A DNA stretch of 64,000 bases, taken from NCBI RefSeq assembly GCF_003790525.1, contig NZ_CP033635.1; one strand, given 5' to 3'. Shown here one piece after another: positions 12,971 to 32,096 of the stretch. A program made the translations under genes and the position numbers. Numbering within the stretch: position 1 is the first letter of the stretch; each line of letters opens with the position of its first letter. A model generated the notes under the pieces. That model ran no database searches, was not told where the DNA came from, and saw nothing but the letters and a program-made list of their open reading frames with translations. Source of the DNA: Escherichia coli (GTDB lineage Bacteria; Pseudomonadota; Gammaproteobacteria; Enterobacterales; Enterobacteriaceae).

Positions 12971-13020
12971 ACATCGTTCCTCTCTTTTCTTACCGGCACG
13001 ATTACCCGTACCGGCATCGA

Positions 13021-14379
13021 TTAAAATTTCAGGGCGTTAGCGATATCTTCTTCGCTCTCTTCTTTATCAATCGCGTTTTGTGCTTTGTTAGCGACCACAA
13101 CAAAGGGCAGATAAATTAACGTTGCGATACCAAGGTTGAAGAGTGCGACCAGCAATGCGGCGACGCTACCGTTGGTGTTAAAGAAGGCTCCCAGACCGGT
13201 TGGCATGGTCCACGGTGCAATATTGGTCACCGGAGGAATAATGCCCATGTAGTACGCTGCGAGGGTGATTGCCGCCAGAATCGGTTGTACCAGTACAAAC
13301 GGGATAAACATCACCGGGTTCATGATAATTGGCAGACCAAACAGAATCGGTTCGTTAATCTGGAAGATGCCGGACGGCAGCGCCAGTTTTGCCACCTGAC
13401 GATAATCAGCACGGCGAGAGGCGATAAAGATAGCCAGGATCAGACCTAAAGTCGCACCACTGCCCCCAAGGAAAATAAAGGAGTCCAGCATCGGCTTGGC
13501 CCAGATATGGAAGGTCTTACCGGCTGCCAGCGCCGCTTCGACGGAACCATATTGCTGATAGGTCGCGATATTTTCCAGCGCCCAAGGCGTCATAATGCCG
13601 TTGTCCAGTGCGGTCAGCGCCAGCGCACCATGAATACCGAAGAACCAGAGCAGTGGAACAAAGATCACATAGGCCCAGCCCACCACACTACCCAACGATG
13701 CCAGTGGGGTTGAGATGGTATCCATAATGATCTGATGGAAGTTGGTGCCCCAGGTATTCAACGCCCAGGCAATAATCCCCATCACGGAAAGAATAATAAA
13801 GCCGGGAATTAAAGCCGAGAAGGAACGCGATACTGAAGCAGGTACGCTATCGGGCAATTTAATGACCCAATTGCGGCGGACAATAAAGGTAAACATTTCT
13901 GCCACCACCAGGCCAATAATAATCCCGGAGATGATATTCGCCCCACCTAACCAGTTTGCGCCAACCGCATAGGCCTCACCGACACTATATGGGGTGACGG
14001 TCATAAATGCTGCAACGGATAACAACCCGGCCGCCAGCGCATCGACTTTACGCTCTTCTGCCAGCGCCATGCCAATAAAGAACGGTGCCATTAAAGACAT
14101 TATCCCTAATGTTCCGTTATATACGTTGCCGCCAATACCTTTCAGACCATTAAGTGTTTCAATGGTTGAGGCATCCAGGCGAATACCTAAGGAATAAAAA
14201 AACGACCCCTCCCCAAAGCTTAGAAAAACGTTGTTAATTAATACAAACATGGCCCCCGCAAGGGTTAACGGCATTAAGCGAATAAAGCCATTTTTGATTG
14301 CATTAACGTGTGGCTGCTTTCCTATTTTAACTGCAAAAGGGAGGAGTACCTTTTCAAGCGATGCAATAACATTACTCAT
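13021..14379 (-). CDS. chbC: PTS chitobiose-specific EIIC
   Basis: 452-aa polytopic permease. Confidence 0.9.
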
Positions 14380-14463
14380 AGAAAAATACCCTTAAAAACC
14401 GCAATTTAAATATTGCGGTATTGATTTATGAAATAACTCTTTGACGGGAAAATTTAAAATAAA

Positions 14464-14784
14464 TTAATTTGCTGCGGCTTTTTTAATCGCTGCAACCGCA
14501 GCCTTAAGCACGCCTAAACCATCGACTTTGCCATAAAGCAGCGAGTCAATTACTTCAACCGGTTTGTTGGGTAACAAACGCTGGATTTCGGGCAACATAT
14601 AAGCAATCTGCGGCCCTAATAACACGACATCGGCATTCTGACCTTTTTCACCAGCCAGTGTTTCCGGAAATGCTTCAATAATGACCGGAACTTCATATTT
14701 TTCTGCCTGTGCGCGCATTTTTGATACCAGTAAAGAGGTAGACATGCCCGCAGAACAAAACAGATAAATGTGTTTCTTTTCCAT
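14464..14784 (-). CDS. chbB: PTS chitobiose-specific EIIB
   Basis: 106-aa product starting [17 protein letters not shown] (phospho-Cys motif). Confidence 0.9.
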
Positions 14785-15023
14785 AAAACTGCCCTCATCG
14801 ACGATTATCTGTAAGCCAGACACTCCGCAAGCCTTAACCTGCTTCCATGCTCTGGGTAACTTGCGAAACCAACATGACTTTTTTTGTGGCTGAAAGGAGT
14901 ATACGGTATAGACCTGAGCAATAGTATTTCTTTGACCTTATAAATTGTCTCTCCTTGACCTGCGGTTATGACCCTCTTCACATTTCGGGCAAATAATTCG
15001 CGAAGATAATTAAGAACTCAGGC

Positions 15024-15053
15024 CAAAAAAAACCGGCACAATGGCCGGTTTCC
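15024..15053 (-). terminator. rho-independent terminator downstream of osmE
   Basis: Stem ACCGGC / loop ACAATG / GCCGGT flanked by an A-run on plus strand (U-run for minus-strand transcript). Confidence 0.6.
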
Positions 15054-15082
15054 GTTGTAACTCAAGCTTTCAGGCGAAGTGA

Positions 15083-15421
15083 TTACTTCGCAGCCTGTGG
15101 ATCAGTGTCGTATTCAGCACAGGTCTGATAACCGGAGTTGATGACATGTCCGGTATCATCTAACGCGACAAAGTAGGTTTCTGCTTTACCATCACGTTGA
15201 CCCAGGATGTAGGTCTGGCAAGTACCACGAGCATGGATCATGCTCACTTCAGACGAAGGTTTACCCGCAATTTGTGCAACCTGCGCCCGGCTCATGCCTT
15301 TTTTGACGTCTTTCACCACAGGCTGTACAAACTGGTCTTTGGTACGATCATAAGCCGTACAACCCGCCAGCATGGTTAATACCGCCGCTGCACTCAGAAT
15401 TCCTGCCATATTCTTGTTCAT
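15083..15421 (-). CDS. osmE: osmotically inducible lipoprotein E
   Basis: 112 aa with lipoprotein signal (LAGC). Confidence 0.9.
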
Positions 15422-15622
15422 ATTCCGTCCTCTTGTTTATCAGCGTGTTAGATAAGCCTGGAATACATTGGGCGCTTTTTCAAGCCCGTGAACGAAACGG
15501 CTCCGCTTTCAGAGGATTCCTGTATGACGTTTTAACCACCATTCAGCCCGCTGTCGCTTGTCGTTTCAGTAGCAACGGGTTAGCTTTAAGGAAGTTTTGT
15601 CTTTTCTGTCTGGAGGGGTTCA

Positions 15623-16450
15623 ATGACATTGCAACAACAAATAATAAAGGCGCTGGGCGCAAAACCGCAGATTAATGCTGAAGAGGAAATTCGTCGTAGT
15701 GTCGATTTTCTGAAAAGCTACCTGCAAACTTATCCGTTCATTAAATCACTGGTGCTAGGTATCAGCGGCGGTCAGGACTCCACGCTTGCCGGTAAGCTGT
15801 GCCAGATGGCGATTAATGAACTGCGCCAGGAGACCGGCAACGAATCACTGCAATTTATTGCCGTACGCCTGCCCTATGGTGTTCAGGCCGACGAACAAGA
15901 TTGCCAGGATGCCATTGCCTTTATTCAACCGGATCGCGTATTAACCGTTAATATCAAGGGCGCGGTATTGGCCAGCGAACAGGCGCTGCGCGAAGCGGGT
16001 ATTGAATTAAGTGATTTTGTCCGTGGCAATGAAAAAGCGCGTGAGCGGATGAAAGCACAATATAGCATTGCGGGTATGACCAGCGGTGTCGTGGTGGGCA
16101 CCGATCATGCAGCAGAAGCCATTACCGGATTCTTCACTAAATATGGTGACGGCGGTACGGACATTAATCCACTGTATCGTCTCAACAAACGTCAGGGTAA
16201 ACAGTTACTGGCAGCATTAGGTTGCCCGGAACACCTTTATAAGAAAGCCCCAACTGCCGATCTGGAAGATGATCGCCCTTCTCTGCCAGATGAAGTGGCA
16301 CTCGGCGTGACCTATGACAATATCGACGACTATCTGGAAGGGAAAAACCTACCTGAACAGGTCGCCAGAACAATAGAGAACTGGTATCTGAAAACTGAAC
16401 ATAAACGCCGTCCGCCAATTACCGTTTTCGATGATTTCTGGAAGAAGTAA
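15623..16450 (+). CDS. nadE: NH3-dependent NAD+ synthetase
   Basis: 275 aa, PP-loop motif SGGQDS. Confidence 0.95.
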
Positions 16451-16495
16451 TAATTTGCACATATTGGTTTGTGCGAAAAAGAGTACTTTGTTCAC

Positions 16496-16529
16496 GCCGG
16501 ATGCGGCGTGAACGCCTTATTCGACCTAC
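16496..16529. repeat. REP (repetitive extragenic palindrome) element
   Basis: GCCGGATGCGGCGTGAACGCCTTATTCGACCTAC resembles the E. coli REP consensus. Confidence 0.6.
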
Positions 16530-16646
16530 AAAACTATGCAAATTCAATATATTGCAGGAGTCGAATAGGCCTGACAGGCGTAGCACGTCAGACGGTGTAA
16601 CCTTTGTCATCGACCCGCCTCTTTTTTAATCGCTCTCCGCCTGTTA

Positions 16647-16666
16647 CACTGGATAGATAACCAGCA
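16647..16666. promoter_or_regulatory. non-canonical LexA box upstream of cho
   Basis: CACTGGATAGATAACCAGCA (CTGG-N8-CCAG variant) just upstream of the cho start. Confidence 0.6.
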
Positions 16667-16679
16667 TTCGGAGTCAACA

Positions 16680-18180
<1,501 letters not shown>

Positions 18181-18304
18181 TTAGTGGCAATCAGGCTTTT
18201 TTTGCATCTGTTTGAGAACAAAAAAGAAAACCGCCGATCCTGTCCACCGCATTACTGCAAGGTAGTGGACAAGACCGGCGGTCTTAAGTTTTTTGGCTGA
18301 AAGA

Positions 18305-18790
18305 TTATTCAGCAGTTGCAGGCATTTTACCTTTTGCCGCTGGACGTTCTGTCAGACGCTTCTCAAAATTAGCATTAAATTGCTTTTTCTGTTCCGGCGT
18401 CAGGATGTTGTAAATCTTGTTCTGGGTTTCCATGTGCGCCAGCATGTTAGCTTTGCGCTGTTCTTCCATTTTTGCGATCTGCGCTTCAGCTTTTGCTTTA
18501 TCGAAGGTATCGCTGGCAATGATGTCATGCATTGCGCGGCGTTCTTCCAGCGGCGGACGTTTCATCTGGTCACGCTGGCCTTTCATGATTTCGCGGATCT
18601 GCTGTTTCTGCGCGTCGGTCAGGTTCAGGTCTTTGAACATCATGTCCTGATGCGGACCGAACTTGCCTTTGTGGTGCATCATCGGCTTCGCGTCAGCCGG
18701 TGCTGAGGTAGTGGTGTCTGCGGCATGGGCCAGGTTAGCCGCGCCAAGAGCCAGGGTAGAGGCAACAAACAGTGCAGTTAATTTACGCAT
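18305..18790 (-). CDS. spy: periplasmic ATP-independent chaperone Spy
   Basis: 161 aa, signal peptide, CpxP/Spy family helical protein. Confidence 0.9.
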   Translation of the reverse strand: MRKLTALFVASTLALGAANLAHAADTTTSAPADAKPMMHHKGKFGPHQDMMFKDLNLTDAQKQQIREIMKGQRDQMKRPPLEERRAMHDIIASDTFDKAKAEAQIAKMEEQRKANMLAHMETQNKIYNILTPEQKKQFNANFEKRLTERPAAKGKMPATAE

Positions 18791-19119
18791 ATTCTATATC
18801 CTTCCTTTCAGTTATTTATTACGGCTTTCTTAAGTAGCGTGCCGTGTTGACGAGATTAACTTTACTGACTTTAGCGTCAATTAATCAGAGCAACGGTAAA
18901 ACAATGAAAGTGTAAAAAACACTTTTTCGCCAATTATGGAGAAAAAAAGAAAATTTGATGGAGAGTAATGAGAGAATATTACAACACGATGATTTTGCAG
19001 AGATTATGAAGAACTATACCGGATGACTGGTGATAAATAAAGCAAATAACCAGGATTAATCTGTATTAATTTATAAGAAAGTAACTTAATACCCGCAGAA
19101 TGATTTCTGCGGGTAAGTA

Positions 19120-25183
<6,064 letters not shown>

Positions 25184-25592
25184 TTAATAATAAGTAATGT
25201 TTGCGCTGTAAATGTAGATTGCAGGGTTCGTGCCAGCCAGTGATAAAAGTGCATAAACGGCGGAGGCTAACTGGAAATCAAGCAGTTATAACCAAACCAT
25301 ATGCATTTAAAGTGCATATAAAGTGAATACGTTTGCGATGTGGGTGAATAAAAAGAATAAAAAACGCAATGTTATGCAGAAGTAAAATATAATTCTGGAA
25401 TTGTGATCATTGACGAAATTTACTGGAAATTACTGCGCCATTCTGACGCAACGCGCACCAAAAGCGGGCATTTTTTGCGCCATCGTTGACATCATTAACA
25501 ACCATCGATCAAATCACTTAACAACAGGCGGTAAGCAAAGCGAAATTCTGCTACCATCCACGCACTCTTTATCTGAATAAATGGCAGCGACT

Positions 25593-26399
25593 ATGAAATT
25601 TGTCTCTTTTAATATCAACGGCCTGCGCGCCAGACCTCACCAGCTTGAAGCCATCGTCGAAAAGCACCAACCGGATGTGATTGGCCTGCAGGAGACAAAA
25701 GTTCATGACGATATGTTTCCGCTCGAAGAGGTGGCGAAGCTCGGCTACAACGTGTTTTATCACGGGCAGAAAGGCCATTATGGCGTGGCGCTGCTGACCA
25801 AAGAGACGCCGATTGCCGTGCGTCGCGGCTTTCCCGGTGACGACGAAGAGGCGCAACGGCGGATTATTATGGCGGAAATCCCCTCACCGCTGGGCAATGT
25901 CACCGTGATCAACGGTTACTTCCCGCAGGGTGAAAGCCGCGACCATCCGATAAAATTCCCTGCGAAGGCGCAGTTTTATCAGAATCTGCAAAACTACCTG
26001 GAAACCGAACTCAAGCGTGAAAATCCGGTGCTGATTATGGGCGATATGAATATCAGTCCTGGCGACCTGGATATTGGCATTGGCGAAGAGAACCGTAAGC
26101 GCTGGCTGCGTACCGGAAAATGCTCTTTCCTTCCGGAAGAACGCGAATGGATGGAGAGACTGATGAGCTGGGGGTTGGTCGATACCTTCCGCCATGCGAA
26201 TCCGCAAACAGCCGATCGTTTCTCATGGTTTGATTACCGCTCAAAAGGTTTTGACGATAATCGCGGTCTGCGTATCGACCTGCTTCTCGCCAGCCAACCG
26301 CTGGCAGAATGTTGCGTAGAAACCGGCATCGACTATGAAATCCGCAGCATGGAAAAACCGTCCGATCACGCCCCCGTCTGGGCGACCTTCCGCCGCTAA
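25593..26399 (+). CDS. xthA: exodeoxyribonuclease III
   Basis: 268-aa product starting [14 protein letters not shown]. Confidence 0.95.
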
Positions 26400-26565
26400 T
26401 TTAGCTGTTCTCCTGGCTCAAACTGGGTCAGGAGAATTAACCTTGAGAAAAATCAACAAACTGTCAGTAATGATTTGTTGCCTGCCGCCCTTTGTTATAC
26501 CGTCACTGCGTTTTTAGTTGTCTGACCACTTCTCTATTATCAAGTTTGATATAGGAAACTCCACG

Positions 26566-27276
26566 ATGAACGCTGAGCGTAAATTTCTTTTTGCCTGTCT
26601 TATTTTTGCGCTGCTCATTTACGCTATCCACGCTTTCGGTTTATTCGATCTGCTCACCGATTTACCTCACTTACAAACACTCATCCGCCAGAGCGGATTG
26701 TTCGGTTATAGCCTCTATATTTTGTTATTCATCATTGCCACCCTCTTTCTGTTACCAGGAAGCATACTGGTGATCGCTGGAGGAATAGTTTTTGGCCCGT
26801 TCTTAGGGACACTACTCTCATTAATTGCCGCCACGCTGGCCTCCTCGTGCTCATTCCTGCTGGCGCGCTGGCTGGGGCGTGATTTACTGCTGAAATATGT
26901 GGGCCATAGCCATACTTTTAAGGCCATTGAAAAAGGCATTGCGCGTAACGGTATTAATTTTCTTATTCTGACCCGCTTAATCCCGTTGTTTCCTTACAAT
27001 ATTCAAAATTACGCTTACGGATTAACCACAATCGCCTTCTGGCCTTATACCCTTATTTCAGCACTCACGACTCTGCCCGGTATTGTTATTTATACCGTGA
27101 TGGCAAGCGATCTCGCCAATGAAGGCATTACGCTGCGCTTTATTTTACAACTCTGTCTGGCGGGCCTGGCGCTGTTTATTCTCGTCCAGCTCGCAAAACT
27201 CTACGCCCGACACAAACATGTGGATCTGTCTGCTTCTCGCCGCAGCCCACTTACTCACCCAAAAAATGAAGGATAG
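26566..27276 (+). CDS. ydjX: DedA/TVP38-family membrane protein
   Basis: 236-aa product starting MNAERKF. Confidence 0.85.
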   Translation: MNAERKFLFACLIFALLIYAIHAFGLFDLLTDLPHLQTLIRQSGLFGYSLYILLFIIATLFLLPGSILVIAGGIVFGPFLGTLLSLIAATLASSCSFLLARWLGRDLLLKYVGHSHTFKAIEKGIARNGINFLILTRLIPLFPYNIQNYAYGLTTIAFWPYTLISALTTLPGIVIYTVMASDLANEGITLRFILQLCLAGLALFILVQLAKLYARHKHVDLSASRRSPLTHPKNEG

Positions 27277-27280
27277 AACG

Positions 27281-27958
27281 ATGTTGCAACATTATTCAGT
27301 GTCATGGAAAAAAGGACTGACTGCACTCTGCTTACTGGCTGTTGCTGGGCTTAGCGGCTGCGATCAAAAAGAGAATGCGGCGGCAAAAGTGGAATACGAC
27401 GGACTTTCGAACAGCCAACCGCTGCGTGTCGATGCCAATAACCATACGGTAACCATGCTGGTGCAAATTAATGGTCGTTTCCTCACCGACGACACTCGTC
27501 ACGGTATTGTGTTTAAAGATGGCTCCAACGGACATAAATCGCTGTTTATGGGTTATGCGACCCCGAAAGCATTTTATGAAGCCCTGAAAGAGGCAGGTGG
27601 TACACCGGGCGAAAACATGACGATGGATAATAAAGAAACGACTCATGTCACAGGCAGCAAACTGGAAATTTCGGTCAACTGGCAAGGGGCGGCAAAAGCG
27701 TATTCCTTCGATGAAGTGATTGTTGACAGTAATGGCAAGAAACTGGACATGCGCTTTGGCGGTAATTTAACGGCAGCAGAAGAGAAGAAAACGGGCTGCC
27801 TGGTGTGTCTGGATAGCTGCCCGGTCGGCATCGTCAGCAATGCAACATACACTTATGGTGCGGTTGAAAAACGCGGTGAAGTTAAATTTAAAGGCAATGC
27901 CTCGGTTCTCCCGGCGGATAACACGCTGGCAACGGTTACCTTTAAAATCACCGAATAA
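27281..27958 (+). CDS. ydjY: lipoprotein YdjY
   Basis: Product starting MLQHYSVSWKK with lipobox LSGC. Confidence 0.8.
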   Translation: MLQHYSVSWKKGLTALCLLAVAGLSGCDQKENAAAKVEYDGLSNSQPLRVDANNHTVTMLVQINGRFLTDDTRHGIVFKDGSNGHKSLFMGYATPKAFYEALKEAGGTPGENMTMDNKETTHVTGSKLEISVNWQGAAKAYSFDEVIVDSNGKKLDMRFGGNLTAAEEKKTGCLVCLDSCPVGIVSNATYTYGAVEKRGEVKFKGNASVLPADNTLATVTFKITE

Positions 27959-27972
27959 AGCCAGGATAAAGG

Positions 27973-28680
27973 ATGATGAAGATGCAATCGCGAAAAATCT
28001 GGTACTACCGTATAACCCTCATCATCCTGTTGTTCGCTATGCTGCTGGCATGGGCGCTGCTTCCCGGCGTCCATGAGTTTATCAATCGCAGCGTTGCGGC
28101 GTTTGCCGCCGTGGACCAACAGGGTATAGAACGCTTTATTCAGTCTTACGGCGCACTAGCGGCAGTTGTCTCGTTCTTGTTGATGATTTTACAGGCCATT
28201 GCTGCACCGCTACCTGCGTTTTTGATCACCTTTGCCAATGCGTCGCTGTTTGGCGCGTTCTGGGGCGGCTTACTGTCGTGGACCAGTTCGATGGCCGGCG
28301 CGGCGCTGTGCTTTTTTATCGCCAGAGTGATGGGCCGCGAAGTGGTGGAAAAATTAACCGGCAAAACCGTACTTGACAGTATGGACGGCTTTTTCACTCG
28401 CTACGGCAAACACACCATCCTGGTATGTCGGTTATTGCCTTTTGTCCCTTTCGATCCAATCAGCTATGCTGCCGGTTTGACTTCAATACGTTTTCGCTCG
28501 TTTTTTATCGCCACCGGGCTTGGTCAGTTACCGGCAACTATTGTTTATTCCTGGGCGGGCAGCATGTTAACAGGCGGTACTTTCTGGTTTGTCACCGGAC
28601 TGTTTATTCTGTTTGCCCTGACCGTGGTGATTTTTATGGCGAAGAAAATATGGCTTGAGCGCCAGAAGAGGAATGCCTGA
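27973..28680 (+). CDS. ydjZ: DedA/TVP38-family membrane protein
   Basis: 235-aa membrane ORF. Confidence 0.85.
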   Translation: MMKMQSRKIWYYRITLIILLFAMLLAWALLPGVHEFINRSVAAFAAVDQQGIERFIQSYGALAAVVSFLLMILQAIAAPLPAFLITFANASLFGAFWGGLLSWTSSMAGAALCFFIARVMGREVVEKLTGKTVLDSMDGFFTRYGKHTILVCRLLPFVPFDPISYAAGLTSIRFRSFFIATGLGQLPATIVYSWAGSMLTGGTFWFVTGLFILFALTVVIFMAKKIWLERQKRNA

Positions 28681-29228
28681 TGGGTTTACCGCCGCTTAGC
28701 AAAATTCCTTTCATTTTACGTCCGCAGGCGTGGCTGCATCGTCGCCATTACGGCGAGGTGCTAAGCCCCATTCGCTGGTGGGGGCGGATCCCGTTTATCT
28801 TTTATCTGGTGTCGATGTTTGTCGGCTGGCTGGAGCGCAAACGCTCACCGCTCGATCCGGTAGTGCGATCGCTTGTCAGCGCGCGCATTGCGCAAATGTG
28901 CCTGTGTGAGTTTTGCGTGGATATCACCAGTATGAAAGTCGCCGAGCGTACCGGCAGCACCGATAAACTGCTGGCAGTGGCTGACTGGCGGCAAAGCCCG
29001 CTCTTTAGCGATGAAGAACGGCTGGCGCTGGAGTACGCCGAAGCCGCAAGCGTCACACCGCCAACGGTCGATGATGCCCTGCGTACCCGACTGGCTACCC
29101 ATTTTGACGCTCAGGCACTCACCGAACTGACGGCATTGATCGGCCTGCAAAATCTGTCAGCCCGTTTTAATTCTGCCATGGACATTCCCGCTCAGGGGCT
29201 GTGCCGTATTCCTGAAAAACGTTCTTAA
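28680..29228 (+). CDS. ynjA: carboxymuconolactone decarboxylase-like protein
   Basis: 182 aa, start overlaps ydjZ stop; last backbone gene before island. Confidence 0.85.
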   Translation: MGLPPLSKIPFILRPQAWLHRRHYGEVLSPIRWWGRIPFIFYLVSMFVGWLERKRSPLDPVVRSLVSARIAQMCLCEFCVDITSMKVAERTGSTDKLLAVADWRQSPLFSDEERLALEYAEAASVTPPTVDDALRTRLATHFDAQALTELTALIGLQNLSARFNSAMDIPAQGLCRIPEKRS

Positions 29229-29415
29229 GGAGGGTACTACCTTCACTTCTACCTCTGCCTCCCAAACTCCGTAAAACTCATGCACAATCACCATATTACA
29301 GTCAACCCGAACATTATGAGCTCCACTGAATTCTACTGTTCACCCCCTAAATCAAGCATAAAATGGGGGCATATTTGGGGGCCCATTGTGTTCAGTCAGT
29401 TTCAGGAGCCCCCAT

Positions 29416-30603
29416 ATGGCACTTACAGCCAGACAAGTCGAAACAGCCAAACCTAAAGACAAAGATTATAAACTCTCTGATGAACGTGGTTTATATCTGC
29501 TGGTAAAAACCACGGGAGCACGCTACTGGCGCTTTAAGTACAGGATAGCAGGAAAGGAGAAAAAACTGTCCTTCGGTGTCTATCCTGACGTCTCCCTTGC
29601 AGAAGCCAGAACCAAACGCGACGATGCAAGGAAAATTATCTCCGAGGGCGGTGATCCCGGTGAAAAGAAACGAAGGGAAAAACTCTCACAGAAAATCTCT
29701 GTCACCAACACCTTCCATGCTCTCGCAATCGAATGGCATCATCATAAATCTTTATCATGGTCTGACAGTTACGCCAGAAGCGTACTGGAAGCTCTGGATA
29801 AAGACGTTTTCCCGTATCTGAGCAACCGGAGCGTTACTGATATCCTTCCACTGGAAATGCTGGAAATACTACGTCGAATTGAAAAACGAGGCTCTCTGGA
29901 AAAACTACGCAAGGTCCGGCAATACTGCAATCAGATTTTCCGTTATGCCATAGCCACAGGACGAGCCACTGTCAATCCAGCCTCAGAACTGAGCAGCACG
30001 CTGGCGGCACCAAAAACCGCACATTTTCCCCATCTGAGAGCGGATGAACTTCCTGTTTTTCTCCGGAAGCTCGCTGACTATCACGGCAGTCCTGTCACTC
30101 GTATGGCTACAAACCTGCTGATTCTGACCGGGCTCAGAACGATTGAATTGCGACTGGCCGAATGGTCAGAAATTGATTCTAGCAACGCACTCTGGCATAT
30201 CCCTAGAGAGAGAATGAAAATGCGCCGGCCTCATATTGTTCCTCTGTCACGCCAGGTCATTTCTGTTCTGCAGGAATTACATGGTTTTACCGGACAGTAT
30301 CGCCTTATGCTACCCGGACGTTGCGATGTAAACAAACCTATGAGTGAAGGCTGCATCAATATGGTGCTCAAACGTATCGGTTACGATGGCAGGGCAACCG
30401 GTCATGGTTTTCGTCACACCATGAGTACCATTCTGCACGAACAGGGCTTTAATTCTGCCTGGATTGAAATGCAGTTAGCTCATGTGGATAAAAACTCCAT
30501 CAGGGGTACCTATAATCATGCACATTATCTCGATGGTCGCCGTAAAATGATGCAGTGGTACGCTGATTACATTGATTCTCTTATGGGAAAAACGCACAAA
30601 TGA
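29416..30603 (+). CDS. int: P4-type tyrosine recombinase/integrase
   Basis: N-terminus MALTARQVETAKPKDKDYKLSDERGLYLLV and C-terminal catalytic region (HGFRHT...LAH...Y) typical of P4-like island integrases. Confidence 0.85.
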   Translation: MALTARQVETAKPKDKDYKLSDERGLYLLVKTTGARYWRFKYRIAGKEKKLSFGVYPDVSLAEARTKRDDARKIISEGGDPGEKKRREKLSQKISVTNTFHALAIEWHHHKSLSWSDSYARSVLEALDKDVFPYLSNRSVTDILPLEMLEILRRIEKRGSLEKLRKVRQYCNQIFRYAIATGRATVNPASELSSTLAAPKTAHFPHLRADELPVFLRKLADYHGSPVTRMATNLLILTGLRTIELRLAEWSEIDSSNALWHIPRERMKMRRPHIVPLSRQVISVLQELHGFTGQYRLMLPGRCDVNKPMSEGCINMVLKRIGYDGRATGHGFRHTMSTILHEQGFNSAWIEMQLAHVDKNSIRGTYNHAHYLDGRRKMMQWYADYIDSLMGKTHK

Positions 30604-30613
30604 AATAAACCAT

Positions 30614-30659
30614 CCCCCACCAACTGCAGCGGTTGGTGGGGGCTTAACTGTTATTTTTT
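30614..30659. terminator. hairpin terminator after int (possibly bidirectional)
   Basis: Perfect 11-bp inverted repeat CCCCCACCAAC / GTTGGTGGGGG followed by T-run. Confidence 0.6.
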
Positions 30660-31150
30660 GATTTTTGCCTTCAGGCGTGTCCACAGGAAAATGCAAACTG
30701 CGGTATATACCCGTGTGATAAACAACAGTTTAAGGCTGAAATACTCTCCTGCCTCGCTGGCATTCGTTTCAAACATAGCGAAAAGAACACTCTGCGAGAA
30801 CTCATGACTATAAATAAAATAATAACAGAGTGCTGTCAGTGACGTAGTCCAGAGAATAATACCGACAACCGCTGCAATAATTTTTATCCGTTCTGGAAAA
30901 AGAAACACGGGTATCCGCCACAGGGAGCTGAATAACAGTGAATCTCGTATTCCATTTATTCCACCGTATCCGGTGCTGAAGATAATCACCTGCAGCAGGG
31001 TGGAAAAGATAAAGTATCGCCCCCGTGCGCTCCGGCTGAAAGCAGGTCTGCTGTTTCCGGCATTTAAATGTATTGACCATCTCCCGGTAAAATGTAATAA
31101 ATCCCCCGTTACCGGAAAACCGATGAACAGAATTCGGACAGAAAATGAGT
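30651..31150 (-). pseudogene. N-terminal membrane-domain fragment, possibly of a phosphoethanolamine-transferase/sulfatase-family LPS-modifying enzyme
   Basis: Hydrophobic segments with FAMFETN-like motif; no catalytic domain follows; abuts int terminator. Confidence 0.35.
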
Positions 31151-31153
31151 TCC

Positions 31154-32096
31154 TCAGTTACCTGTTGCGTTTCCCCCGGTCTGATGAGCCAGAGACACAA
31201 TGGTCTGTACCGTTCTGTTGATATTAAACCGGTATTCGATATCTTCTCTGGCGCTGGCAACCATCATCCTGAAGCGTTCCGGGCGGGACAAAAAATCCCG
31301 AAGCGCACTGGTCCATGCAGTCATATCTCCCACAGGTAAAAGTGTTCCTGTCACATTTTTCTGAATGGCATCCGGGATCCCGCCAGTCTCACTGGCAATA
31401 ACGGGAACACCGGAGGCTGACGCTTCAGCCAGGACCATGCCAAATGCCTCATTTTTCAGAAGGCATGATAGCACACTGGCAACCCGGTATATCGGTAACG
31501 CCGGGAAAACAGCACCAGCCATGAAAACATCACCACTCATTCCCAGTGATTCAATCTGCAGGCGAAGGCGTTCTTCGTATTCCTCACGACCAGCGCCCAC
31601 CACGAGCCATCGAAATACTTTCCCTTCCATCTTCAGTTGGTGCAACACCCGGAGCATAAATTCATGCCCTTTCTCGGGACGCAACATACCCACCTGGACA
31701 ATCAGCGGGATATTGCCCGCTGATTCTGTCCATCCCTGAATATGCGGAGGTAACTGTTGCCTGACTTCTCTGTGTAATACAGAAACGATGCCAGCATATC
31801 AGACGGCTCAGGCCTGCAATGTTACTGTCATGACCACTGTGGCAGATTACCAGATCAGGTCTGAATTACCGGATTACCTGCCGCAGTCTGATGATGGAAG
31901 GAAGGTGAAGACTGTTCCTGAAAGGAATAAAAGTAACATCATGTCCGATTGTTCTGGCTTCATGAGCTATTTTACTTTTTTCCCTGCAGGCGAGTAAAAC
32001 AGAATGCCCCTGTTTCTGGAGCGCTGTCATCTGTGCCAGAGCCTGTAACTCCTGGCCACCAATATCTGGTGAAGACTCAGTGAATAAAATCTTCAT
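31154..32096 (-). pseudogene. GT4-family glycosyltransferase, disrupted
   Basis: N-terminal piece (31866-32096) and C-terminal piece (31154-31693, EAFGMVLAEA...GVPVIA motif) in different frames. Confidence 0.6.

Follow-up and report, generated by a model that had tools for sequence, protein, structure and literature searches.

A P4-family integrase at the left end of an Escherichia coli pathogenicity island in the ynjA-ynjB spacer, and its likely retargeting from tRNA-Phe

The 64,000-nt stretch of Escherichia coli DNA analyzed here (contig NZ_CP033635.1, hereafter the window) carries an integrase gene, int, directly after ynjA, and this gene marks the left end, that is, the left attachment site (attL), of a pathogenicity island. 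We consider it likely that the island was inserted by its own P4-family integrase (Int) into the spacer of 9 bp that separates ynjA from ynjB, and that a swap of the overlap, the short region of strand exchange, retargeted Int from tRNA-Phe to this spacer. Positions are numbered along the window, strands are given as displayed, and the window ends inside the island. It begins with E. coli chromosome (katE, chb, ast, xthA, ydjXYZ, ynjA), after which the DNA is foreign. The features that carry the argument are as follows.

28680-29228, + strand: ynjA, the last gene before the island (open reading frame list and RefSeq annotation in relatives)
29222-29232: attL copy of the direct repeat, imperfect, 11 bp, TTCTTAAGGAG; the copy at the right attachment site (attR) of relatives reads TTCCTAAGGAG
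29226-29232: identity block TAAGGAG, 7 bp exact in attL, attR and the empty chromosomal site (attB); putative strand-exchange (overlap) region
29233-29239, + strand: apparent relic of a tRNA-Phe 3' end, GGTACTA against GGCACCA, from positional homology in alignments with tRNA-Phe-adjacent relatives
29233-29415, + strand: P' arm (int-proximal), 83-85% identical to the stretch that separates int from tRNA-Phe in relatives; includes the int ribosome-binding site
29416-30603, + strand: int, an intact P4-family (Arm-DNA-bind_3) tyrosine integrase of 395 aa (Pfam, alignment, RefSeq)

Junctions of the island with the chromosome

We compared the junctions in the window, in six island-bearing strains and in K-12 and SMS-3-5, which lack the island. 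In the empty site of the latter two, the ynjA stop and the ynjB start are 9 bp apart, reading ..CGTTCTTAAGGAGAGATGATG.. / ..CGTTCTTAAGGAGAGATGATGCGCC.., and the window matches SMS-3-5 at 100% identity over 13000-29232 and diverges from it thereafter. The left junction in the window reads CGTTCTTAAGGAG followed by GGTACTACC. The right end of the island is attR, directly before ynjB, where the relatives Ch1, L26, 24A16CRGN010 and SCU-115 read AGTTTTATTCCTAAGGAG followed by AGATGATG, so that the junction itself is ..AGTTTTATTCCTAAGGAG|AGA... The repeat common to the two island ends is thus TTC(T/C)TAAGGAG, in which TAAGGAG is the sole stretch identical across attL, attR and attB; the chance probability of an in-register 7-bp match at both junctions is ~6e-5. 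The preliminary description of this locus had suggested integration at an unusual site overlapping the 3' end of ynjA and had pointed to direct repeats near the right end and to island-free strains as further checks; the suggested integration is what the junctions show, with the ynjA stop lying inside the end repeat and TAAGGAG emerging as the core.

TAAGGAG holds both the ynjA stop codon TAA (29226-29228) and the ynjB Shine-Dalgarno sequence, and therefore both survive the insertion: attL keeps the stop, attR keeps the ynjB ribosome-binding site and ATG, and the coding regions are intact. The island nevertheless splits the ydjX-ynjD operon, cutting ynjBCD off from the upstream genes, and such an operon-splitting insertion that preserves stop codon and ribosome-binding site may alter ynjBCD expression. 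As a separate observation, SCU-115 carries a lineage-specific single-nucleotide polymorphism (SNP) 4 bp past the core that changes the first of two tandem ynjB ATGs to AAG (TAAGGAGAGAAGATG); translation of ynjB in this strain would therefore need the second ATG.

Absence of a tRNA gene at the site

A P4-type integrase after ynjA with no tRNA or tmRNA target had been the starting point of the preliminary description, and this picture holds. ARAGORN detected neither a tRNA nor a tmRNA over all 64 kb, and Rfam at gathering threshold returned, over the window, only isrC, isrN and ES036, all away from int, and no tRNA or tmRNA. The usual, although not defining, association of the P4 family with the 3' end of a tRNA or tmRNA gene is absent here, since the neighbor of int is ynjA in 29 of the 29 complete genomes that carry the island. 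What lies next to the core is a 7-nt sequence, GGTACTA, at the position of GGCACCA, which comprises the last three acceptor-stem bases, the discriminator and the CCA of tRNA-Phe; the two differ by two C-to-T changes. From its position in the alignments, we interpret GGTACTA as a decayed tRNA-Phe relic inside the element's own attachment site (attP), and neither as a tRNA gene nor as a chromosomal fragment. Such a relic would be under no further constraint to restore a tRNA.

The integrase gene

The start of int was placed at the ATG at 29416, which RefSeq uses for all relatives and which has AGGAG 8 nt upstream; a longer, TTG-initiated reading frame from 29386 was rejected as a mechanical artefact of the listing of open reading frames. 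The distance from the ynjA stop to the int start is 187 nt, against the 188 bp given previously. The gene is intact, as had been proposed: Pfam identifies Arm-DNA-bind_3 (PF13356) at aa 3-88 (E = 1.2e-27), Phage_int_M (PF22022) at aa 100-193 and Phage_integrase (PF00589) at aa 207-370, and the catalytic residues R241, H330, R333, H356 and Y366 are invariant in the alignment with related integrases. The catalytic lysine, K268, was assigned by position only. The window Int is identical to RefSeq WP_001218736.1 of island-bearing strains, for which the RefSeq name is the generic tyrosine recombinase, and it falls in a 90% cluster of its own with 126 members, all named E. coli. Its score against NCBIfam PRK09692 is 299.7, under the cut-off of 434. 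A PDB search aimed at mapping residues onto lambda Int gave partial and weak matches (E ~3e-4), too poor for that purpose; the best of them were domains of CP4-like and CPS-53 integrases with known structures.

Kinship with tRNA-Phe islands and reconstruction of attP

The relatives of the element sit at tRNA-Phe. A segment of 417 bp that starts just past the core and reaches into int matches ~500 E. coli loci abutting tRNA-Phe (pheU or pheV) at 83-85% identity, and the last ~180 bp of the right end of the island (the P arm) are 72-76% identical to the right ends of pheV islands (~1100 genomes). In amino acid sequence, Int shows 87-88% identity with the integrases of pheU and pheV islands and 74-81% identity with the outgroup integrases of Lelliottia, Enterobacter kobei and Providencia. 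The spacing between the core end and the int ATG is 176 nt in the ynj island, in the E. coli phe islands and in all examined outgroups, which follow tRNA-Phe (four genera). At the level of sequence comparison, these identities establish the ynj element as a sister lineage of the E. coli pheV/pheU islands, with common descent of Int and of both attachment arms. Since relatives and outgroups are all at tRNA-Phe, tRNA-Phe is by parsimony the ancestral target and the ynjA-ynjB site the derived one. A near relative, H30, has a nested integrase beside an SPI-7-type module of an integrative and conjugative element (ICE) and was uninformative on target sites.

To compare the two types, we reconstructed attP for each. 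The phe type reads ..AGTTTC ATTCC GAGTCCG GGCACCAC TTTCACTTC.., with TTTCAC straight after GGCACCAC, and the ynj type reads ..AGTTTT ATTCC TAAGGAG GGTACTAC CTTCACTTC.., with CTTCAC straight after GGTACTAC. The central blocks, GAGTCCG and TAAGGAG, are identical at 1 of 7 positions, and the adjoining positions at 17 of 21 and 15 of 20. Bases with dyad symmetry surround the block in each site: TTCC-N7-GGTA in the ynj attP, TTCC-N7-GGCA in the phe attP and TTCT-N7-AGAT in the ynj attB. In these reconstructions, then, the central 7 bp stand out as the only part of attP replaced wholesale relative to the phe type. The 7-bp identity, which is the published minimum, and the fact that exactly this block differs from the phe relatives together lead us to infer that the overlap is TAAGGAG.

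Arm-type Int sites and the int promoter presumably lie within 29233-29415. The P' arm contains blocks conserved across genera, namely TTCACTTC, CTCCC.AACTCC, GA.CTCCAC, AATCAAG and GGGGGC..TGGGGGC.CA..GTGTTCA, which are candidates only; a repeat search for arm-type sites in the reconstructed 420-bp attP returned trivial 8-mers, from which arm sites are not definable.

The differences between Int and its relatives are unevenly distributed. A domain-wise comparison of nonsynonymous and synonymous divergence (dN/dS) shows clustering at aa 247-300, a stretch of 54 residues that holds 19-20 of the 43-48 amino acid differences from the pheU/pheV integrases. We do not claim positive selection on Int, because the synonymous divergence of this stretch is also raised (0.65 versus 0.39 overall) and several of the changes polarize to the phe branch. 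Eighteen substitutions polarize to the ynj branch, with clusters at aa 131-137 in the core-binding domain and at aa 255-313 in the catalytic domain, and the residues in these two clusters are candidates for specificity determinants.

Occupancy of the site in E. coli

The distribution of the island was surveyed in 5426 complete E. coli genomes. The ynjA-ynjB junction is uninterrupted in 5388 of them, and ynjA is followed by int (attL) in exactly 29 (0.5%), the same 29 having attR abutting ynjB. No element other than this island was found at the site. A search with int and its arm returned 29 matches at ≥99% identity, the next being ≤85%, and never at another site. In public assemblies, 2596 indexed blocks contain exactly this Int protein, whose neighborhood is ydjZ-ynjA-int in 10 of 10 distinct contexts. 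An int-ynjA arrangement that was common and well annotated would have argued against an unusual site; the arrangement is a minority one despite these 2596 blocks, and its annotation is generic. The plasmid search for this int lineage found only phe-type relatives at ~85% identity, and the phage search found no match. The hosts are poultry, swine and human E. coli. In one carrier, GF60 (NZ_CP172185.1), attL (3268330-3270350, + strand) and attR (2536018-2536396, - strand) are ~730 kb apart and on opposite strands, which indicates that a later large chromosomal inversion, presumably between copies of an insertion sequence (IS), has split the island.

Probable repeated integration across chromosomal backgrounds

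The same island is found at the same junction in chromosomes that differ. Compared with Ch1, the window shows 429 differences over 20.5 kb in the flank (2.1%) and 7 over 21.4 kb in the island. In six complete genomes, the left flanks are 1.8-5.3% divergent from the window, whereas their islands, compared over up to 4.5 kb, show 0-3 differences; these genomes have six ynjA protein alleles (one common with the window lineage) and an identical Int. The nearest left-flank difference lies 13 bp from the core (L26). The right flanks are 1.7-3.9% divergent, and the SCU-115 SNP described above comes just 4 bp past the core. Eleven more assemblies gave 8 flank haplotypes with identical junctions, which brings the overall count to about a dozen flank haplotypes around an island that is ≤0.07% divergent and has the same junction throughout. 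Conversely, the 12-kb flank of the window is ~100% identical in 24 complete genomes including SMS-3-5, and the island is present in 0 of these 24; all six 3-kb flank haplotypes differ from the flank of the window. A break in divergence at the core in many backgrounds indicates repeated Int-mediated integration and not displacement of an int module, and from these comparisons the integration system appears to have worked repeatedly and with high site specificity. Beside the island, the last 280 bp of ynjA (28953-29232) are identical between the window and Ch1, and the preceding 950 bp differ at 53 positions; the identity may reflect a short recombination tract beside the island or a locally shared allele.

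Proposed mechanism and alternatives

Tyrosine integrases need a match of the overlap between attP and attB and do not read its sequence. Crossover has been reported to take place within a block of 7 bp or more that is identical between attachment sites (PMC10111431), and heterobivalent integrases are reported generally to have 7-bp overlaps, in which identity is required and composition is largely free (bioRxiv 10.1101/2023.11.06.565760). We propose that an incoming attP with TAAGGAG would recombine with the ynjA-ynjB attB across this 7-bp overlap, and that the replacement of GAGTCCG by TAAGGAG would have moved the target from tRNA-Phe to ynjA-ynjB. The former tRNA 3' end beside the block has begun to decay. 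The assignment of the overlap to TAAGGAG and GAGTCCG fits the published GI-pheV (genomic island at pheV) repeats, because the shortest of them, that of E2348/69, begins one base left of GAGTCCG (PMC11537424).

As to how the new overlap arose, we tentatively put forward, with confidence somewhat short of even, that the element is a natural "site-affinity" derivative, whose attP gained a new overlap, plausibly picked up at a secondary site when the element excised, with subsequent co-adaptation of Int at aa 131-137 and 255-313. If this were true, the strand-exchange region for the entire family of GI-pheV/pheU integrases would be GAGTCCG, at the junction of the T-stem and acceptor stem of tRNA-Phe, changes in those seven bases could retarget or immobilize the medically important pheV/pheU islands, and the stable fixation of GI-pheV islands with GATTCCG at attR would be explained.

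Several observations weigh against the retargeting mechanism or limit it. TAAGGAG occurs at chance frequency (5 occurrences in 64 kb) and is thus so common that extra specificity must come from the flanking half-sites and the changes in Int, a recognition that we presume. The right half-site of attB (AGATGATG) has almost nothing in common with that of attP (GGTACTAC). The true overlap could sit one base off or take in the T/C mismatch of the repeat. Many common GI-pheV islands have GATTCCG at attR against GAGTCCG in the tRNA (the ST131 pheV right end; PMC11537424 Table 1). This mismatch falls within the proposed overlap and could be tolerated only in immobilized islands; we take those islands to be immobilized, but the phe-type crossover could instead lie elsewhere. 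The segment aa 247-300 of Int is partly derived on the phe branch and may be mosaic (recombinant) instead of adaptive. Decay of the island is far advanced: IS elements are numerous and its ICE/transfer genes are pseudogenes, so that a circle of 72-99 kb would need some other vehicle to pass between strains. Finally, the attP junction expected of an excised circle or a tandem copy is absent from Joint Genome Institute (JGI) metagenome contigs and from the complete E. coli genomes, each carrier showing just two half matches, so that current activity of the island would follow from its distribution only; rare circles are not expected in assemblies.

Spread of large E. coli islands by homologous recombination of the flanking chromosome is widely proposed, and a single ancient integration followed by spread solely through conjugal or transductional exchange of flanks, with Int irrelevant or inactive, is the alternative to which we give the most weight, while still regarding it as unlikely. 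The pseudogenized transfer genes, the missing attP junction and the 280 bp of ynjA identical in Ch1, which could be a short imported tract and are the one hint of such a tract, would all fit it. Homologous recombination, however, needs and leaves much longer common flanks than are seen here: divergence drops from 1.3-5.3% to ≤0.07% exactly at the core, in various strains differences are seen at distances from it of 13, 79, 91 and 115 bp (left) and 4, 51 and 83 bp (right), and the flank of the window is 100% that of the island-free SMS-3-5 up to the core.

It is less probable still, and in our judgement very improbable, that a tRNA-Phe-specific island with a phe-type attP hit a pseudo-attachment site once with its specificity unchanged. 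It is true that the identical core covers no more than 7 bp (or 10 of 11), that attP and attB have dissimilar right half-sites, and that secondary-site use is known in this integrase family, SGI1 being a reported example. Against such an accident, TAAGGAG is in both attL and attR, which means that the incoming attP already had this overlap, whereas a mismatched overlap would leave unlike sequences at the two ends. The tRNA 3'-end remnant of attP is moreover mutated (GGTACTA), so that integration at pheV or pheU would damage the tRNA, and the proportion of synonymous differences (pS) of ~0.4 between int and the phe integrase genes makes the split an old one. The lineage is never at tRNA-Phe and the phe type never at ynjA-ynjB among the 5426 genomes, and the island is in many flank haplotypes. 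The preliminary description had also offered a secondary displacement of the int module, in which an IS-mediated rearrangement or inversion would have moved int and its arm beside ynjA from a tRNA-sited island. The island is rich in IS, and a large inversion has parted attL from attR in at least one carrier, GF60. Yet neither end has a tRNA, and attL and attR are both intact and match each other, their P' and P arms being homologous to those of the pheV/pheU islands and arranged in the normal way. The empty site is moreover precise to the single base and shows no loss of sequence, and IS elements are missing from both junctions in the window and in most carriers; we therefore reject this displacement as scarcely credible. 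Integration by Int at its own, retargeted site remains the reading that we prefer.

Relation to known systems

The element has several features of an integrase-mobilized genomic island: matched attL and attR around a core, a precise empty attB, and independent insertions at one site in different hosts. Its closest known counterparts are the intP4 islands GI-pheV and GI-pheU (GI-pheV of EC958, pathogenicity island (PAI) I-CFT073, SHI-3; PMC11537424, PMC7545054). As in the ynj island, int marks their left end, points the same way and lies 176 nt from the core end, arms and Int are related (83-85% for the P' arm, 72-76% for the P arm, 87-88% for Int at the amino acid level), they carry iha, aerobactin, a right-end yee/cbtA module and an AlpA-family gene, and they are IS-rich mosaics of similar size. 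They differ in that the target of the ynj island is the ynjA-ynjB spacer and not tRNA-Phe, that their repeats are 19-23 bp of the tRNA 3' end while the ynj repeat is 7 bp exact (11 bp imperfect), and that in the ynj island the central 7 bp of attP are replaced, the tRNA-derived part is decayed and Int is in its own 90% cluster. The ynj island thus has the common descent of the GI-pheV/pheU group and lacks the two features that define membership, tRNA-Phe adjacency and tRNA-derived repeats. P4 and CP4-57-type integrases have the same three-domain architecture and conserved catalytic residues as the ynj Int; P4 and most of its relatives, unlike the ynj Int, recombine in a tRNA 3' end with a longer identity block.

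Altered overlaps have been linked to altered targets elsewhere. The "saf" (site-affinity) mutants of lambda, described in 1983 by Weisberg and colleagues, reportedly changed the integration site through an altered attP overlap. Reprogramming of the overlap of mv4 Int follows the same 7-bp identity rule, a change in the attP overlap shifting the integration site (bioRxiv 10.1101/2023.11.06.565760). In contrast to these laboratory manipulations or phage mutants, the ynj case is natural, fixed in an island lineage and deduced from sequence, and it is accompanied by a different attB context and by Int substitutions. Among phage-inducible chromosomal islands (PICIs) and helper-embedded PICIs, close integrases likewise have different targets, including tRNA-Phe versus protein-gene sites, and there too attP was rebuilt from attL and attR and the identity block localizes the crossover (PMC10111431). 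PICI integrases belong to another clade and PICIs are small phage satellites, as opposed to a ~90-kb virulence island, and the ynj target is an intergenic stop-codon/ribosome-binding-site junction within an operon. Because target-switching integrase clades and experimental overlap reprogramming are known, the principle of retargeting is not new, and the ynj island is a natural case of integrase retargeting and not a new kind of system.

In the literature, we found no paper joining ynjA or ynjB with an integrase, a genomic island or a pathogenicity island, supplementary tables being outside the search, and the ynjA-ynjB site is not listed among the E. coli island sites in PMC11537424 and PMC7545054. 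It is thus a previously unlisted integration site for a virulence island with aerobactin, sit and iha genes, and one that tRNA-centered island finders would miss. The island offers a natural experiment on how a tRNA-targeting island integrase gains a new chromosomal address, in which ancestor-like and derived attachment sites and integrases coexist in one species, often in one genome, without cross-use. It also allows the crossover region of the pheV/pheU integrases to be assigned in a way that can be tested, and it narrows the candidates for specificity residues to a short list.

Extent and cargo of the island

From the coordinates of both ends, the island is ~72-99 kb long in complete genomes and 96 kb in Ch1, in which it holds dozens of IS fragments. 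The following features lie in the window part of the island.

29233-64000: the left 34.8 kb of the island, 99.97% identical to Ch1 over 29233-50670 and 51928-64000
30614-30642: GC-rich hairpin between int and a convergent pseudogene remnant, 13-bp stem, -26 kcal/mol, z = -3.75
30651-32751, - strand: decayed lipopolysaccharide (LPS)/cell-envelope cluster directly after int, pseudogenes in all relatives examined
48300-50100: ICE gene remnants of the TIGR03756 and TIGR03757 families, annotated pseudogenes in Ch1
50670-51928: IS3-family element of 1.26 kb (orfB 50873-51919, NCBIfam NF033516), in the island of the window and absent from that of Ch1
62242-62384, - strand: isrN match, 138 bits
62949-63992, - strand: amiC paralogue, 667 bits to the NCBIfam AmiC model, just below the 700-bit cut-off

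The cargo in the window comprises pseudogenized LPS-modification genes, cytochrome b562, IS21, IS3 and IS630 elements, a PhoX-family gene, the ICE gene remnants, iha and the amiC paralogue. The cluster at 30651-32751 contains a phosphoethanolamine-transferase fragment, a frameshifted GT4 glycosyltransferase and a polysaccharide deacetylase. The ICE remnants suggest that part of the island is derived from a decayed ICE. Past the window, the Ch1 annotation lists sitABCD, iucABCD-iutA, an AlpA-family gene and a yeeU/cbtA module; the AlpA-family protein (78 aa; PF05930, E = 2.6e-10) is a candidate excisionase. We considered whether partial ABC-transporter pseudogenes in the island were inverted pieces of ynjBCD, and this was dropped, an intact ynjBCD being present at the right end. 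The Rfam isrC match (50738-50860) lies inside orfA of the IS3-family element and is therefore probably IS sequence and not an independent small RNA gene.

The hairpin after int had been described as a strong terminator. The structure itself is confirmed by its folding energy; as the T-run on the + strand begins ~12 nt past the stem, and a simple terminator scan calls the minus strand, it is better regarded as a strong hairpin between convergent genes than as a textbook intrinsic terminator, and it is probably a bidirectional transcription stop. In the loop of this hairpin, strain B771 and the window differ at just three positions, 30625, 30628 and 30631, a pattern that fits a flipped loop.

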